A stretch of 64,000 nucleotides of DNA from an archaeon (GTDB lineage: Archaea; Nanobdellota; Nanobdellia; Pacearchaeales; GW2011-AR1): the NCBI GenBank assembly GCA_043810775.1, contig JBDRNU010000003.1:1-64000 (forward strand), given 5' to 3'. Of this stretch, positions 18,673-55,295 are shown in pieces (the first letter of the stretch is position 1; each line of letters opens with the position of its first letter). Made by a program: the position numbers and the translations under genes. The notes under the pieces are model-generated. The model was not told the DNA's origin. It saw nothing but the letters and a program-made list of their open reading frames with translations, and did not search any database.

Positions 18673-20823
18673 ATGAAGAATAGAGGATTAATATTATTTT
18701 TAGGATTAATATTATTGCTAGTTACGTGCGTAAATTCAGAAACTAGCATTTATATGAATGGAGAATTTATAAGAGACCTTCCTGTAAGTGCCTTTTTGCA
18801 AGATTCAGCAGGAATACTAAATGCTACATCAACCTGGGCTGTACAAATAGGGGGAATAAATATTACAGGAGCTAATGAGACTATCTGTGTTCTAGATTCT
18901 GGAGTTGATTTTACACATCCAGACCTAGTTGGAAAAAACTATACATGCAATATTAATTGTATGACTCAAGGCTGTATAGAAAACTGCTCAATACTAGATG
19001 ATAATGGGCATGGGACTCATGTAGCTGGAATCTTAGCTGGAAATGGCACTATACTTAAGGGAATTGCGCCTGACGCAATGCTAATCAGCCTGAAGGTTTT
19101 AGACAGTGCTGGAAATGGCTATTTATCTAATGTAACTTCAGCTATAAGCTGGTGCATAGAAAATGCCCCTATATATAATATAAGCGCAATAAGCATAAGC
19201 CTGGGAACTGAACCACCTTATCTTTACAGAAGCTACTGCGATAACATTGATACAGAGACAACTGCTGCAATAAATAATGCAACTGCCCATAACATATCTA
19301 TAATAGCAGCTACAGGAAATGACGGCAATACAACAGCTATAGCCCTGCCAGCCTGCATTCAGAACGTAACTGCAGTGGGAAATTCTGATAAATCCGACGG
19401 TGCAGCAAGTGATTCAAATTATAATAATATAACTGACTTATTTGCAACTGGAGTCAGCATTAATTCTACAAAATCAGGAGGAGGATATCAGATAAGAAGC
19501 GGGACTTCAATGGCAGCTCCGCACGTTACTGCTGCATTCATATTAATAAAACAGTTTTATAGGCTGCAGAGAAATGCATTAGCTTCACCACAAGATATTG
19601 AGAGTGCACTGAAAAATAATGGGGTAATAGTTACATACGGAGGATTAAACTTTAGCAGAATAGACATATATACTACAATATTATCTTTAGATTTGCCTTT
19701 AGTAATTCTATCTTCACCAAAAAATAATACTTATTTGAACATTCAGACTAATTTTACCTGCAATGCTACAACTGCCTCAAATAGAACTGAATTTTTGAAT
19801 GTAACTTTTTATTTATGGAATTCTACTTCTGATTTAATAAATGAAGAATCAAATGGAATTAATGGCACAAGCAATTATAGCCAGTTTAATTTTACACTAG
19901 GTGAAGATTCCTATAACTGGAACTGTATATTTTATGACAATGAAACATATTCCAGCATGGCTAGCTCAAATTACAGCATCACTTATGATAATACTGCCCC
20001 GGCAATTAATTTAAGCATTCCACCAAATTCTTCAAGCTACTCGTCGAACAGCGTGCAATTTTACTTTAATTTATCAGAAACTAATCCTGGCAATTGCACT
20101 TTGATAGTTAATAATCAGACTAATGCAACTAACTATATGGTTTCAGGAATTTACAATAATATTAACTCAACTTTGCAAAATGGGATTTATAACTGGAGTG
20201 TAAACTGCACTGATAAAGCTGGAAATTCTAATTTAAGTGATACCTGGCAGTTAACAGTTAACTATCAGGCGCCGAGTAGTGGAGATGATGACTCTAGTGG
20301 CGGAGGAAGTAGTGGTGGAGGTGGGGGCGGAGGAACTGATGTAGTTTATACAGTTACAGAAGAACAGCTAGCTTCAGGAGCTACGAGAAGTCTTTACAAA
20401 AGTAATAAAATTAAATTTGTTGTTTTAAACCAGACACACTATCTAACTTTAGAAAACTTGAATGAGAATACTAGTGAAATCAGGGTTGAGAGCAATATAT
20501 ATAATTTTAATCTTATAACTGGTGAAAGCAAGAAGCTCTCATTTGAAGATAATTACTATAATATAATAGTCAGGCTAAATTCAATTGAAAAAAGCCAGGC
20601 TAGCTTAACTTTAACTAAGATAAGTGAGATTATATTAAAGCCAGAAAAAGTAAGTGCATTTAATAATAGCGAGGAAGAACCAGGGGATATTGGAGATTCT
20701 GGAAAAGATACAATTACTAATAAAATACCTTATATTTTAATTATTTCTGCAGTAATTATTATTGCTGTAATTATAATTATTATCAAGAAAACTAGAAATA
20801 GAAAACCTAAAAAATATTTATGA
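18673..20823 (+). CDS. Membrane-anchored subtilisin (S8) protease with Ig-like stalk
   Basis: Catalytic triad VLDSG, HGTHVAG, GTSMAAPHV; many NxS/T; Gly linker; C-terminal TM plus basic tail. Confidence 0.93.
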   Translation: MKNRGLILFLGLILLLVTCVNSETSIYMNGEFIRDLPVSAFLQDSAGILNATSTWAVQIGGINITGANETICVLDSGVDFTHPDLVGKNYTCNINCMTQGCIENCSILDDNGHGTHVAGILAGNGTILKGIAPDAMLISLKVLDSAGNGYLSNVTSAISWCIENAPIYNISAISISLGTEPPYLYRSYCDNIDTETTAAINNATAHNISIIAATGNDGNTTAIALPACIQNVTAVGNSDKSDGAASDSNYNNITDLFATGVSINSTKSGGGYQIRSGTSMAAPHVTAAFILIKQFYRLQRNALASPQDIESALKNNGVIVTYGGLNFSRIDIYTTILSLDLPLVILSSPKNNTYLNIQTNFTCNATTASNRTEFLNVTFYLWNSTSDLINEESNGINGTSNYSQFNFTLGEDSYNWNCIFYDNETYSSMASSNYSITYDNTAPAINLSIPPNSSSYSSNSVQFYFNLSETNPGNCTLIVNNQTNATNYMVSGIYNNINSTLQNGIYNWSVNCTDKAGNSNLSDTWQLTVNYQAPSSGDDDSSGGGSSGGGGGGGTDVVYTVTEEQLASGATRSLYKSNKIKFVVLNQTHYLTLENLNENTSEIRVESNIYNFNLITGESKKLSFEDNYYNIIVRLNSIEKSQASLTLTKISEIILKPEKVSAFNNSEEEPGDIGDSGKDTITNKIPYILIISAVIIIAVIIIIIKKTRNRKPKKYL

Positions 20824-25096: not shown

Positions 25097-25612
25097 ATGA
25101 ATAAAAGAGGGCAATTTTATATTGTAGCTGCTGTAATAATAATTATAGCGCTAATTAGCTTGGTGAGCATTACAAATTATGTAAGAAACCAGAATAAAGA
25201 AACTAAAATTTATGATTTGAGCAAGGAGGTGGGTGATGAAACTGGAGAGGTTTATTCTTATGGAATTTACAATGAAGAGGATACCCAATTATTAATTAGG
25301 AGCTGGCTAAATGAATACGTGAATTATGCTAATAATTACGGGCCTTCTGACTGGCTATTTGTATATGGAAATTCAGATAATATTACTGCTCTAACTTTTA
25401 CTAATTATACTGTAGGAAGCATTATCTTAGATTTTGGAGGGTCTGCACAGATTTACACACTAGATGAGACTCGCAGCCAGGGGCAAAGCTTTATACCTTT
25501 TGGAGATTATGTAAATGTAACATTTTTTAATTATGCTTATGATTTTGAATTAAAGAAAGGTGAAAACTTTTACTTTGTTATAAGAAAAGAGGGAGTAGTT
25601 GAAAGAGGCTGA
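25097..25612 (+). CDS. Minor pilin-like protein (class III signal peptide)
   Basis: MNKRG/QFYIVAAVIII. Confidence 0.8.
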   Translation: MNKRGQFYIVAAVIIIIALISLVSITNYVRNQNKETKIYDLSKEVGDETGEVYSYGIYNEEDTQLLIRSWLNEYVNYANNYGPSDWLFVYGNSDNITALTFTNYTVGSIILDFGGSAQIYTLDETRSQGQSFIPFGDYVNVTFFNYAYDFELKKGENFYFVIRKEGVVERG

Positions 25613-25640
25613 TATGATAAACAAAAGAGGATTGAGTAGA

Positions 25641-25739
25641 TAACCTTTAGGAGGTTACCAACTGTCGAGACTAAATCTTACTTATGTAAGATATTATCTC
25701 AACGAATTAACTTCCTACAAGAGTTAGTTAATGATTAAA
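25641..25739 (+). other. Structured three-hairpin non-coding element, copy 1
   Basis: Homologous to 42487-42566 with compensatory changes; flanked by a 22/24-nt duplication of the pilin start. Confidence 0.8.
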
Positions 25740-26231
25740 ATGATAAATAAAAAAGGATTGAGTGAAGTTATAGCTTATGTATTGCTTATAGTAATAGCAC
25801 TTACTTTGAGTGCTGTAGTTTATACTTGGATGAAAGGATACTTATTCGTACCTAGTGAAGTCTGCCCTGAAGGAGCGTCAATAATTATTCAAGATTATGA
25901 TTGCAGTGAATTTCCTAAAATACAAGTACTACTAAATAATCATGGAAGGTATAACTTAGATGGATTTGTTATAAAAGGAAGCAATAACAGCCAGGGGCTT
26001 GTGATTAATCCTTTAGAGCCTATTCCTAACCCCAATATGTTTGAAGGAGGATTTATATTAGTTCCAGATTTCAGGCCAGGATTATCAATAAAAGAAAATT
26101 TTACATATTTTGAATTAAACAGCTTAAGCAGGATTGAAATTTCACCAATAATGTATGATGAGAAATCAGATAATTATATTATTTGCGAGGAATCAGTAAT
26201 AGTGCAACAGGTTGGAGGGTGCCCTCCATAA
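25740..26231 (+). CDS. Archaeal type IV pilin
   Basis: MINKKG/LSEVIAYVLLIVI. Confidence 0.88.
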   Translation: MINKKGLSEVIAYVLLIVIALTLSAVVYTWMKGYLFVPSEVCPEGASIIIQDYDCSEFPKIQVLLNNHGRYNLDGFVIKGSNNSQGLVINPLEPIPNPNMFEGGFILVPDFRPGLSIKENFTYFELNSLSRIEISPIMYDEKSDNYIICEESVIVQQVGGCPP

Positions 26232-41839: not shown

Positions 41840-42481
41840 ATGGTTGTGAAAATAATAAGTAATTTTTTTAACAGAATTTTTTCAAATATGTTTCATAGAC
41901 AGAAACATATTAAATTAGGCTTTTATGGGCCGCCAAATGCTGGAAAAACTTCACTGGCTAATAGAATATGCAAGGATTGGACTGGAGAGGAAATAGGAAA
42001 AGTCAGCCATATTCCTCATGAAACTAGAAATGTTCAGATAAGAGAAAAAGTAGATATTGAATATAAGGGGAATAAGCTAACACTAAAGCTAGTTGATACG
42101 CCTGGAATAGCTACTAAGATTGATTATGAAGACTTTTTAAAATATGGTATGAATAAAAAGGCTGCTCAAAAAAGGGCAAAAGAAGCTACCCAGGGAGTGG
42201 TTGAAAGCATCAAATGGCTAGATGATATGGATGCTGTGGTGGTTGTTTTAGATTCAACTCAAAATCCTTATTCGCAAGTTAATATTACTATAATAGGAAA
42301 TTTAGTTGCCAGGAAAATTCCTGTACTAGTTGTTGCTAATAAGACTGATTTAAGGAAATCAGATATTAAAAGAGTGGAGGCAGCATTTCCTGAATATGAT
42401 GTTGTTGGAATCTCAGTGAAAAAAGGAAAAAATATGGAAGAGTTTTATGAATCATTGTTCAAGCTAGCAAAAAAAACTTAA
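41840..42481 (+). CDS. oapA: Era-like small GTPase (OapA-like)
   Basis: GPPNAGKTS, PHETR, DTPG, NKTD; followed by DUF2073- and DUF2072-like genes. Confidence 0.82.
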   Translation: MVVKIISNFFNRIFSNMFHRQKHIKLGFYGPPNAGKTSLANRICKDWTGEEIGKVSHIPHETRNVQIREKVDIEYKGNKLTLKLVDTPGIATKIDYEDFLKYGMNKKAAQKRAKEATQGVVESIKWLDDMDAVVVVLDSTQNPYSQVNITIIGNLVARKIPVLVVANKTDLRKSDIKRVEAAFPEYDVVGISVKKGKNMEEFYESLFKLAKKT

Positions 42482-42486
42482 AAAAT

Positions 42487-42566
42487 AAACCTTTAGGAGG
42501 TTTCCAACTGTCGTGCTTAACAGCACAACGAATTAACTTCCTTCATAGAGTTAGTTAATATTCAAA
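42487..42566 (+). other. Structured three-hairpin non-coding element, copy 2
   Basis: AAACCTTTAGGAGGTTT-CCAACTGTC-GTGCT..AGCAC-AACGA-ATTAACTT..GAGTTAGT. Confidence 0.8.
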
Positions 42567-42585
42567 ATGATAAAAAAAGAGGAAA

Positions 42586-42963
42586 ATGAGCAAAAATAAA
42601 CTGACATTAAGTTTTATACCTTATTCAGAAATTGAAAACTTAGACAGTGTCAAGAGAGTTAAAAAAATACTAGATATTGTCCTAAAAAATAGAATAGTAA
42701 TATTACAGGGAAGGCTTGCTGCTACTGAAGAAGGCTCATTAATCCAGAGTACAATGGCTTTAGTTGGCAAGATAAAAAGTTTCAGAGGAGTTGAACTTGC
42801 AGTTATTACTGGAAATCAGGCTTCTTTTATGAGCAGATTAAGACACGGACTGGCTAAAATGCTAATAGGAGACAGTGATGCCCTCACTATAATAGGTCCA
42901 GCTTCTATAGTCAGAGAAATTAAGAGAGACCCTAGCAAGATTGATTTAATGCTTAAGAGATAA
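42586..42963 (+). CDS. oapB: DUF2073 family (OapB-like)
   Basis: RVKKILD.V...IVILQGRL...EE..LI..TM, F.GVE, LTIIGPA. Confidence 0.78.
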   Translation: MSKNKLTLSFIPYSEIENLDSVKRVKKILDIVLKNRIVILQGRLAATEEGSLIQSTMALVGKIKSFRGVELAVITGNQASFMSRLRHGLAKMLIGDSDALTIIGPASIVREIKRDPSKIDLMLKR

Positions 42964-53305: not shown

Positions 53306-55195
53306 CTATCTTATCCTTATAGTCTCAAGATTTCTAGGAACATTAGTCTCGATTCTATTCAATTTATAGATTGAAGAAGCTAAATCAATGCACTTGCTTG
53401 ATTCGCCGTGATTAATAATTACTCGCTTAGGCTTTGGGTTGATATGGTTGATAAATGCAAGAAGCTGATTTCTACCTGAATGGCCTGAAAAACCAGGGAT
53501 AGTATGAACTTCCATTAGCACTTTTACATCTTCTTCTTTATTAGATTCAGAGTTCATCATTTTTACTTCTTTAAGCCCATCTTGAACTTGACGGCCTAAA
53601 CTTCCTGAACCCTGATAACAGACAAAAATCAGACTGTTTCTTTTATTTCCTGCGAACTCGCGAAAATACTCAACAGATGCCCCACCTACAAGCATACCTG
53701 AAGTTGCAAGAACTACACAAGGTCCTCCTTCAATGACTTTTTTCCTTTCTTGCGGTGAGCGAATTCTAGTAAAAACGTCACTTAAAAAAGGATTTTTATC
53801 TTGGAAAATCTGAGTTCTGACAACTCCTGACAAGAAATTAGGATAAGCTGTATGAATTCCATTAATATCCCAAATCATACCATTAATATAAATAGGAACT
53901 TTAGGAATTTTTCCCTGCCTCATGGCATCTTCCAAAACAAGCATTGTTTCTTGCGACCTTCCTAAACCAAGTTCTGGAATAAGAACTTTTCCTTTTCTTT
54001 CAATTGTTTTTTTAACAAGGTCTAGGAATTCGTCCTCAACATCTTTTCTCTGAGGAAGGGCATCATTTTTGCTTCCATAAGTGGATTCTACAATTAGTGT
54101 TTCAAGTCTTGGAAAATTTATAGCAGAAGCCTCTAGTAGTCTTGTTCTTCCAAATTTCATATCGCCTGTATAAATCAAATTGTGGAGACCATTTCCAATA
54201 TTTAAATGAACCATAGCACTTCCAAGAGCATGACCTGCGTTATAAAATGTTAATCTTACATCTGGAGTTACATCAGTTACCTCATTATAATCTAAACATA
54301 TTGAGTGCTTGACCATTTCCTTTATATCAGTAGAGGAGTATAAAGGAGCTGTAGCTTGCTTATAAGCTACACCAATAAAATCTAAAGCAATAAGTGAGGC
54401 TATATCTCTTGTAGGAGTAGTCATATAACAAGGCCCTCGGTAGCCCATTTTATACAAGTAAGGAAGTAATCCACAATGATCAAGATGTGCATGAGTTAAG
54501 ATAACTGCATCAATTTGATTTATATCAAATTCAGGAATATCAAAAAACGGAAACTTTTCTGAATTATGAGCTGCAATATTCACCCCACAGTCCATCAAAA
54601 TTTTTGACTCCGGAGTATGTAAAAGCAAGCATGATCGCCCAACCTGCCTTGCCCCACCTAAAAAAGTCAATCTTATCCATTCATCTAACTTTTCTGGATT
54701 CCACTCTTTGTAAATTTTTTTACCTATAGAATTTAAAAATCTTTTTCTGTAATTATTATTTAAATAAAGAACTGCCCTAATATTTTCTGTAATTTTACTA
54801 GGGATGGCCGGACTTCTTTGAACTTGTGGTATCCAAAAAGTTTTCCTCTTGATTTCCTGAAGGACACTTCCTTGTTTTCCTATTACCATTCCTGGTTTTT
54901 TTGCCTCAACTACCACTATTGACCTTTGAACATCAAAAATAATGCTAGTAACTTCAGCTTCCTTTGGAACTATTTTGCGGATTTCTTTTTCGGATTTTTC
55001 CTGGTCTTGCAGTAATTTGCTGTCTGCTCTAAGCTCAATTCTTTTTTTTATTTTATCAACTACTTTCTTTATTTCATTTTCTCCTTCTAAGAAAAAATTA
55101 GTATCATCAGTGTAAAGAACTATGTTTGCACCTTCAAAATTTGCACTAGCAATGCATTTTGGAAGTTGCTCTTGTATATTTTTAAGAATGTCCAT
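53306..55195 (-). CDS. fttA: aCPSF1/FttA beta-CASP ribonuclease (transcription termination factor)
   Basis: KH domain KPGMVIGKQG, LGGARQVGRS, THAHLDH, NAGHALG, GFSGH, HGE; adjacent to psmB. Confidence 0.95.
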   Translation of the reverse strand: MDILKNIQEQLPKCIASANFEGANIVLYTDDTNFFLEGENEIKKVVDKIKKRIELRADSKLLQDQEKSEKEIRKIVPKEAEVTSIIFDVQRSIVVVEAKKPGMVIGKQGSVLQEIKRKTFWIPQVQRSPAIPSKITENIRAVLYLNNNYRKRFLNSIGKKIYKEWNPEKLDEWIRLTFLGGARQVGRSCLLLHTPESKILMDCGVNIAAHNSEKFPFFDIPEFDINQIDAVILTHAHLDHCGLLPYLYKMGYRGPCYMTTPTRDIASLIALDFIGVAYKQATAPLYSSTDIKEMVKHSICLDYNEVTDVTPDVRLTFYNAGHALGSAMVHLNIGNGLHNLIYTGDMKFGRTRLLEASAINFPRLETLIVESTYGSKNDALPQRKDVEDEFLDLVKKTIERKGKVLIPELGLGRSQETMLVLEDAMRQGKIPKVPIYINGMIWDINGIHTAYPNFLSGVVRTQIFQDKNPFLSDVFTRIRSPQERKKVIEGGPCVVLATSGMLVGGASVEYFREFAGNKRNSLIFVCYQGSGSLGRQVQDGLKEVKMMNSESNKEEDVKVLMEVHTIPGFSGHSGRNQLLAFINHINPKPKRVIINHGESSKCIDLASSIYKLNRIETNVPRNLETIRIR

Positions 55196-55295
55196 TTTCA
55201 AAACAACCTACAATTTTTTTGTATTTTCCCTTGAGACTTTAGAAATTTTTTTAGTTTCATGTTTCTGAGAGTAATCAAAAACCTGTAGTTTTTGA
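55193..55295 (-). repeat. Second copy of 40-nt hairpin leader plus additional REP-like palindrome
   Basis: 55193-55232 matches 47408-47447; TCAAAAAC-CTGTA-GTTTTTGA at 55275-55295. Confidence 0.85.

Follow-up and report, generated by a model that had tools for sequence, protein, structure and literature searches.

A small structured non-coding element, very probably mobile, with target-site duplications of variable length in a groundwater archaeon and its relatives

The window analysed here is a 64-kb stretch of the genome of a groundwater archaeon (contig JBDRNU010000003.1, positions 1 to 64,000), in which two copies of a small hairpin-forming element lie next to genes (Table 1). Copy 1 is found at the start of a pilin-like gene. 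An upstream open reading frame (ORF) is followed there by two copies of the pilin start, between which the element and its short tail are placed; the right copy is the present start of the gene, and the left copy has become a 9-codon ORF that ends inside the element at a TAA (25641-25643). An earlier note, made from the letters of this sequence, had described the two element copies with their common blocks, the 24-nt repeat of the pilin start together with the small ORF opened by its left copy, and differences between the copies that preserve pairing, and all of these were found again when the window was re-read. The pairing-preserving differences are a T-A closing pair of the first hairpin in copy 1 and an A-T pair in copy 2, and a middle stem that in copy 1 is GAGA/TCTC and carries a long insert at its apex, compared to GTGC/GCAC in copy 2. 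If the TGAT at 25610-25613 is counted, the pilin-start repeat could extend to 27-31 nt and contain a 4-nt indel. A Shine-Dalgarno-like AGAGG (25604-25608) precedes only the left pilin start, now a stump; the right, functional start is preceded by the element tail (25733-25739) instead, and an in-frame ATG occurs at 25731 within the element end, upstream of the start at 25740. A metagenome contig of 151 nt, which may derive from the source sample of this genome, spans 25606-25756 with 0 differences, and the arrangement of copy 1 is therefore not an artefact of this metagenome-assembled genome's assembly alone. No junction skipping the element was seen in contigs from four groundwater DNA runs, which are thin and fragmentary.

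Copy 2 is placed between a GTPase gene and an OapB-family gene and stops 26 nt short of the latter's real start, a correction to the earlier note, which located the element at translation starts. The OapB family comprises origin-associated proteins, its gene sits 3' of copy 2, and a replication origin may lie near 41840-42963.

About a dozen copies beyond the window pair were detected by BLAST against the contigs of the source genome itself (G000; 995 kb, or about 1 Mb, in 26 contigs, 80% complete). A covariance model built from 14 element copies and applied to 101 genomes of the family, including G000, gave 13 strong (E 1e-20 to 1.5e-9) and two weak matches in G000, and the presence of only two copies, as noted earlier, was thus an undercount; in all, G000 has 13 full and 2-3 partial copies. 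Matches were obtained in four of the 101 genomes, namely G000, the single congener compared (G001, seven matches; the G000 and G001 assemblies are 80-85% complete), and G093 and G101, members of two other genera, with one match each. A second model, built from 23 copies and applied to 151 genomes of the order including G000, matched only G000 and G093. Across the family and order genomes, neither model matched any of approximately 245 other relatives. Every match in G001, G093, and G101, read by eye, shows the same build of hairpin A, linker, stem B, and hairpin C. A further hairpin A of the type seen at G000 contig C16 is present at G001:C44:50053-50084 (94% over 32 nt); the covariance model did not detect it at E<=0.01, and the G001 copy number is therefore a lower bound. 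No Rfam family was matched anywhere in the window at gathering thresholds; at E<=10 the best match was rli28 with 21.2 bits against a threshold of 45, which is at chance level, and in a search with one long element copy only the neighbouring tRNA passed its threshold. ARAGORN found nothing in the window. A pattern for hairpin C had only unrelated matches in public collections (one in genome contigs, in a Shewanella coding region, three in viral contigs, and three in metagenome contigs), and two patterns for stem B had 0 matches in viral contigs.

The element is approximately 75-150 nt long, does not code for protein, and consists of three modules. Hairpin A is variable, stem B contains one non-Watson-Crick pair that does not vary, and hairpin C (RTYAAC-loop-GTTRAY) is followed by a short A-rich tail. 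Tails similar to that of copy 1 (GRTTAAA) follow hairpin C in at least nine copies at unrelated loci. In a MAFFT alignment of 14 copies, standard pairs occupy 98.7% of 233 cells and seven of 20 pairs change on both sides; this level of pairing was matched by 0 of 500 shuffles, and controls with slid partners pair at 31-47%. The alignment of 23 copies was fitted to the covariance model and is therefore biased in its favour; here pairing extends to 97.9% of cells, and both sides change in 12 of 19 pairs. Most of the covariation signal comes from the lower stem of B, in which four of five pairs change on both sides. Hairpin A has a wholly variable sequence (AAGCTT..., AACC...GGTT, GCAATCTTT..., ACAAGTTCT...), yet 6-11 bp are always formed, and three copies (C4, C7, and C9) carry two extra hairpins within the loop of A, still closed by its stem. 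Hairpin C is the same in both window copies, where the earlier note saw a difference only in the loop of its third hairpin; its register is given by divergent copies as ATTAAC/GTTAAT, which covaries to ATCAAC/GTTGAT and GTTAAC/GTTAAC, and differs in this respect from the earlier description. Collectively, the structure is under selection.

The modules are shuffled among copies. The two window copies have A and C in common and different forms of B, and G000:C16 and G001:C19:9198 have A and B in common and different C. Over 39 nt, the A-B part of G000:C16 and that of a copy in G001 have 97% identity, compared to 68-78% identity of flanking coding DNA of the two genomes, which points to strong constraint or recent exchange. 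A kissing contact between loops 1 and 3, as had been suggested, did not hold for the family, because the complementarity is limited to the six of 13 copies with TTTAGGAGG in hairpin A and does not covary. The minimum-energy fold of copy 1 has the 3' arm of A paired with the 5' arm of C instead, a pairing that is not general either. Some A hairpins are palindromic and resemble a TFB recognition element (BRE)/TATA promoter; those of the AGGAGG, G001, and C16 types do not, and a role of hairpin A as the element's own promoter is thus not general. G000 tRNA introns have no sequence in common with the element modules.

At one position of stem B, all 23 of 23 copies have C facing A, amid neighbours that covary. 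On the minus strand this C.A pair of the plus strand becomes a G.U wobble, and compared with dinucleotide shuffles the window copies fold better on the minus strand (z = -5.37 and -3.65) than on the plus strand (z = -4.69 and -3.12). The folded molecule may therefore be RNA or single-stranded DNA, and of either strand.

Evidence for mobility is obtained from orthologous sites at which one congener carries the element and the other lacks it. The pilin locus is filled in G000 and empty in G001, which has the stop of the upstream gene, one base, and a single start codon, without the element. It follows that the two pilin starts of the window represent a target-site duplication; a single start copy at an empty orthologous locus had been set beforehand as the test of an insertion. 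Two more sites, C26:9999 and the rpoL promoter locus at C26:7177, are also filled in G000 and empty in G001, where rpoL has one promoter copy and the insertion point lies exactly 3' of the TATA box. The opposite situation, filled in G001 and empty in G000, is observed at G001:C9 and G001:C19:9198. At the C16 locus, no DNA-level orthologue was found in G001. Judged from these sequences, the element appears to have been active since the two congeners split. A tandem duplication of a BRE/TATA promoter (period 18) without an element, upstream of a gene at C26:52700-52743, was considered as an excision footprint; it is conserved in G001 (C45) and is therefore an ancestral double promoter rather than an excision scar.

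The same family could alternatively be regarded as non-mobile, either as small RNA genes or as cis-regulatory leaders at translation starts, the latter having also been raised in the earlier note. Conserved structure with compensatory changes, sense orientation, and the position of several copies immediately 5' of start codons or 3' of promoters and tRNAs would agree with this. As a sole explanation it is refuted by the five sites at which the congeners differ in carrying the element, and it can hardly be correct given also that insertions into the first codons of genes have duplicated the start, that no Rfam family matches, and that the family was not found in most relatives. A regulatory leader would be expected beside one gene family and at orthologous loci; the neighbouring genes are unrelated (the pilin-like gene, OapB, rpoL, membrane proteins, tRNA ends, and convergent gene ends), and the orthologous loci of G001 lack the element. 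A secondary host role of individual copies is possible. The other suggestion of the earlier note, a small structured mobile element of no known family, agrees with the dispersed copies, the empty orthologous sites, the covariation, and the Rfam result at E<=10. We can conclude that this is very probably a lineage-restricted, non-autonomous, non-coding mobile element that duplicates its target.

The element inserts at gene boundaries, and the footprints left by insertion are long and variable. Exact flanking repeats of at least 10 nt were found at nine of 13 copies, compared to 2.7% of 3000 random sites, and repeats of at least 13 nt at six of 13, compared to 0.37%; their lengths range from 10 to 44 nt. 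The duplicated sequence holds a consensus BRE/TATA promoter ending exactly at the first base of the element, a start codon with 2-8 codons, or a tRNA end. The motif GAAAG[GC]TTTA[AT]A occurs at 22 sites in G000, seven of them within 45 nt of an element copy, and several duplicated targets are inverted repeats built around a promoter. Because the median spacer between co-directional G000 genes is only 30 nt, long duplications often contain promoter or start signals, and selection for insertions that rebuild the duplicated signals may explain part of the target pattern. The left flanks have no fixed target motif in common. In four of nine junctions read by eye, the repeat runs 3 to 13 or more nucleotides into the 3' end of the element (5 nt at C16, 7 nt at C26:7177, 3 nt at C26:9999, and at least 13 nt at G001:C6, where an older, 5'-truncated copy comes before the left repeat), and the longest repeats were confirmed by an exact-repeat scan. 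Nine of 10 matches between co-directional neighbours are in sense orientation, the exception being the weak, divergent match C7:36885. Moreover, in three copies the element starts 0-2 nt beyond the 3' end of a tRNA gene (tRNA-Thr, tRNA-Ile, and tRNA-Lys), a solo A-like hairpin lies 3' of tRNA-Val, and the G093 copy is placed in a tRNA gene, within its first 10-13 nt. The two ends are not inverted repeats of each other: the best 14-nt terminal match is 6-9 of 14 in all 14 copies, no better than in shuffles, and the share of shuffles that were equal or better ranged from 0.08 to 0.92.

These footprints bear on how the element is moved. A serious rival, judged unlikely, is a miniature derivative of an insertion sequence (IS) whose DNA transposase would lie outside the assemblies and make a long, variable stagger, for which IS1630 of Mycoplasma is a precedent. 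Like prokaryotic MITEs (miniature inverted-repeat transposable elements), the present element is small, non-coding, hairpin-forming, and dispersed in intergenic DNA, has target duplications, and relies on a function supplied from elsewhere; a transposase gene could be missing since the assemblies are incomplete, and the inverted repeats around duplicated promoters would also suit a transposase. IS1630 duplications of 19-26 bp and those of more than 30 bp at restriction-modification (RM) gene blocks are given in PMC2853133 and resemble the present ones in being long and variable, whereas the range of 10-44 nt is wider than that reported for IS1630, which, unlike the present element, is an autonomous IS with its own transposase. 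MITEs are characterised in PMC11602168 by duplications of 2-10 bp and by inverted repeats at their termini that measure at least 10-15 bp, and by these criteria the element, without inverted ends in any of 14 copies and with duplications that vary from 10 to 44 bp, differs from them. Furthermore, no parent IS or transposase (rve, DDE_Tnp_1, TnpB, Y1) was found in the 80-85% complete assemblies, with rve and DDE_Tnp_1 sought in both G000 and G001, and no larger element with the same ends was detected in G000 by self-BLAST or the covariance model. The strong orientation bias and the starts exactly after tRNAs would be unexpected for such a derivative.

Hairpins read by HUH/Y1 enzymes carry a mismatch or wobble within the stem. 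The invariant mismatch or wobble inside the covarying stem B, together with asymmetric ends that have a hairpin near each and no inverted repeats, and with the orientation bias, would thus be in line with a miniature single-strand-DNA element of the HUH/Y1 kind, similar to IS200/IS605 derivatives or repetitive extragenic palindromic (REP) sequences, with recognition of the hairpins, at the replication fork, on a single DNA strand. This is very improbable, since such elements insert without target duplication, whereas the duplications seen here are confirmed by empty sites, and since the left flanks lack the fixed 4-5-nt target motif that would be expected. No Y1 (PF01797; 0 matches, with the control matching six of 14 genomes) or TnpB domain was found in the 80% complete G000 assembly.

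A further serious rival is that no dedicated enzyme is involved and that the copies are inserted by host repair, a route proposed for RM genes in PMC2853133, which describes for them long, variable duplications without other features of mobile elements. None of seven families of mobility enzymes was found in the assemblies, and the homology at the 3' side of the junctions would suit annealing-driven repair. RM gene blocks are single and kilobase-sized, whereas the element is a repeated structured family of about 100 nt with defined ends. At least 20 insertions with the same defined ends and module order would not be expected of chance repair, the invariant non-Watson-Crick pair amid covarying neighbours suggests a specific recognition factor, and the family is confined to four of approximately 250 related genomes, though repair enzymes are presumably shared by all of these. 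We therefore consider repair alone quite improbable.

Compared to these alternatives, a mobile element with target-primed insertion is the best explanation overall and is somewhat favoured. The target strands would be nicked 10-44 nt apart, and a single-stranded copy of the element, with the plus polarity of the local transcripts, would anneal through its 3' end to one nicked strand and be copied in, after which the second strand would be primed from the other nick. At the pilin locus, the element was inserted 24 nt inside the gene, the duplication rebuilding the start codon and first codons downstream and leaving the 9-codon stump upstream. The copies adjacent to tRNAs may be sources, with the 5' end set by processing of the tRNA 3' end. 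A target-primed route would account for the variable duplications and for repeats running into the 3' end, as well as for the order (3' end + X)-A-B-C-(3' end + X) and the tandem stacking beside older copies. This target-primed, single-strand route is proposed tentatively, as a plausible idea short of a probable one, and an RNA intermediate is unlikely.

Several observations weigh against this explanation in whole or in part. No RVT_1, Cas1, rve, DDE_Tnp_1, or GIY-YIG domain was found in the G000 and G001 assemblies, which are 80-85% complete, nor TnpB or Y1 in that of G000. Two copies with flanking repeats, G001:C19:24507 and C2:49000, have no 3' microhomology, and at the rpoL locus the 3'-end sequence left of the repeat is missing from the diverged empty site of G001 and may not have been there before the insertion. 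Units without the 3' module C exist (C2:22845 and the second unit in G093), and truncation is thus not limited to the 5' side. The site of window copy 2 is occupied in G001 by an unrelated spacer of approximately 70 nt, and copy 2 has no convincing flanking repeat. The sense bias could arise from selection alone, because the opposite strand has T5-T6 at the A-runs of hairpin A. A TATA box directly adjoins the first base of the element in six copies. In archaeal promoter geometry, a transcript from an adjoining TATA box would start about 23 nt inside the element, after hairpin A, and promoter-adjacent transcripts would therefore lack this hairpin; the distance between the rpoL promoter and its ATG is 23 nt. 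Finally, the wobble and the better folding of the minus strand speak for a folded molecule on the strand opposite to local transcripts.

The search for enzymes also gave candidates that were set aside. The only RVT_1-like signal in G000 (15.2 bits) comes from an ORF of 631 aa on the minus strand of the window (53306-55201), which resembles a KH/beta-CASP ribonuclease and is not a reverse transcriptase. Tyrosine recombinases, two in each of G000 and G001, belong to an enzyme type from which duplications of this kind would not be expected.

The logic of target-primed insertion is that of short interspersed nuclear elements (SINEs), which are eukaryotic non-autonomous retroposons. The element resembles SINEs in the absence of inverted ends, in variable duplications that begin with a match to the element 3' end, in the conservation of its 3' module, in an association with tRNA genes, and in some 5'-truncated copies; it is unlike them in that it has no reverse transcriptase partner found in the incomplete assemblies of G000 and G001, and lacks the usual internal promoter or A-tail, and in that 3'-truncated units exist. 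The element could then be imagined as a first SINE-like retroposon of archaea, in which sources cotranscribed with tRNAs provide a 3' hairpin and tail that anneal to the nicked target, and in which copying would be performed by a reverse-transcribing polymerase outside current profiles or supplied by a host or virus. Variable duplications with 3'-end microhomology are what this would predict and are observed; we nevertheless regard it as improbable. No SINE-like retroposon of archaea was described in the literature searched.

Other repeats are present in G000. A second, larger hairpin-rich family of approximately 150-280 nt consists of several perfect hairpins between GGATGCTCAGAAA... and ...TTTCTGACATAATA, is often found at contig ends, and has one copy just upstream of tRNA-Trp. 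Four tRNA genes are followed on the 3' side by a common trailer of about 70 nt with a hairpin ATGGGATTGA...AAATCCCAT and then GGAGAGAGTACTTTGAAAGTGA, which may be a co-transcribed small RNA, and several tRNAs have a conserved 5' leader in common (ATCACCCCTGAGGCATACTCAAGGGA...AACCGTTAGGTG). Identical 141-nt overlaps at many contig ends look like a feature of the assembly graph and suggest that some contigs could be joined.

Table 1. Features of the two window loci, flanking repeats of element copies, and other repeats of G000. Window features are given as positions; other loci are written contig:position (C26:9999 is on G000 contig C26), with the prefix G001 for the congener.
Feature	Position or locus	Strand	Basis or remark
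Upstream ORF, 171 aa	25097-25612	+	No Pfam family; stop TGA 25610-25612, 1 nt before original pilin start
Left target-site duplication copy (original start codon + 7 codons of pilin-like gene)	25614-25637	+	Single copy in congener
Element copy 1	25638-25732	+	Covariance model, 97.4 bits, E 4.4e-19
Copy 1 hairpin A (TAACC/GGTTA)	25641-25657	+	Sequence
Copy 1 linker CCAAC	25658-25662	+	Sequence
Copy 1 stem B, long form with 7-bp apical hairpin	25664-25703	+	Sequence
Copy 1 hairpin C	25706-25732	+	Sequence
Copy 1 tail GATTAAA, 7 nt	25733-25739	+	Sequence
Right target-site duplication copy (present start of pilin-like gene)	25740-25763	+	22/24 identical to left copy
Pilin-like gene	25740-26231	+	Pilin_N 17.5 bits, under 25.2 cut-off
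GTPase gene (MMR_HSR1), upstream of copy 2	41840-42481	+	Pfam
Element copy 2	42486-42559	+	Covariance model, 73.2 bits, E 2.2e-13
Copy 2 hairpin A, closed A-T instead of T-A	42487-42503	+	Sequence
Copy 2 linker CCAAC	42504-42508	+	Sequence
Copy 2 stem B, short form (GTCGTGC/GCACAAC)	42510-42529	+	Sequence
Copy 2 hairpin C	42532-42559	+	Sequence
Copy 2 tail ATTCAAA	42560-42566	+	Sequence
10-codon ORF after copy 2 tail	42567-42599	+	Sequence
OapB-family gene (PF09846), downstream of copy 2	42586-42963	+	Pfam
Flanking repeat (doubtful)	C7		10 nt
Flanking repeat	G093		10-13 nt
Flanking repeat	C4		13 nt
Flanking repeat	C2:49000		15 nt
Flanking repeat	C26:9999		16 nt
Flanking repeat	G001:C37		16 nt
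Flanking repeat	C2:22789		16-25 nt
Flanking repeat	Window copy 1		24-31 nt
Flanking repeat	G001:C19:9198		24-27 nt
Flanking repeat	G001:C19:24507		25 nt
Flanking repeat	C26:7177		30 nt
Flanking repeat	C16		32 nt
Flanking repeat	G001:C6		44 nt
Second repeat family, G000	C5:4581-4862		
Second repeat family, G000	C8:2976-3165		
Second repeat family, G000	C10:34135-34237		
Second repeat family, G000	C22:1-155		
Second repeat family, G000	C22:26694-26836		
Second repeat family, G000	C9:13265-13474		
tRNA trailer, G000	C2:~18935-19004		3' of tRNA-Ser gct
tRNA trailer, G000	C8:~4735		3' of tRNA-Ser gga
tRNA trailer, G000	C7:~54395		3' of tRNA-Gly gcc
tRNA trailer, G000	C25:~79580		3' of tRNA-Glu ctc

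Among repeats of prokaryotic genomes, the BOX, Correia, and REP/bacterial interspersed mosaic element (BIME) families resemble the present one as mosaics of exchangeable hairpin modules that are intergenic and co-transcribed with their neighbours, and have no sequence relation to it. Inverted ends or, in Correia, a TA duplication are found among them, REP sequences are moved by Y1-type enzymes, and none of these families is known to leave duplications of 10-44 bp. An archaeal small-RNA-like repeat is the MITE-like C/D box small RNA element of Pyrobaculum calidifontis, with about 15 copies confined to one species; as described in PMC6009581, it has conserved flanking inverted repeats and C/D boxes, neither of which occurs in the present element. 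No account of such a family was found in the main texts of the articles searched on DPANN or other archaea; entries for related genomes may exist in the supplementary MITE census tables of PMC11602168.

Archaea of the DPANN group with small genomes are thought to carry few mobile elements. The absence of inverted ends, the duplications of 10-44 bp, the 3' homology, the sense orientation, and the starts adjacent to tRNAs fit no described prokaryotic route, from which we infer an insertion mechanism that has yet to be described; it may run on host replication or repair enzymes. The element represents a new form among non-autonomous mobile elements, with a probably unconventional route of insertion. 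For the host, its insertions interrupt promoters and gene starts that are rebuilt by the duplication, leave mini-ORFs upstream, and place hairpins of about 100 nt before genes such as those for the pilin-like protein and rpoL. The covariance model lets annotators mask the copies and avoid false starts such as the 9-codon ORF.

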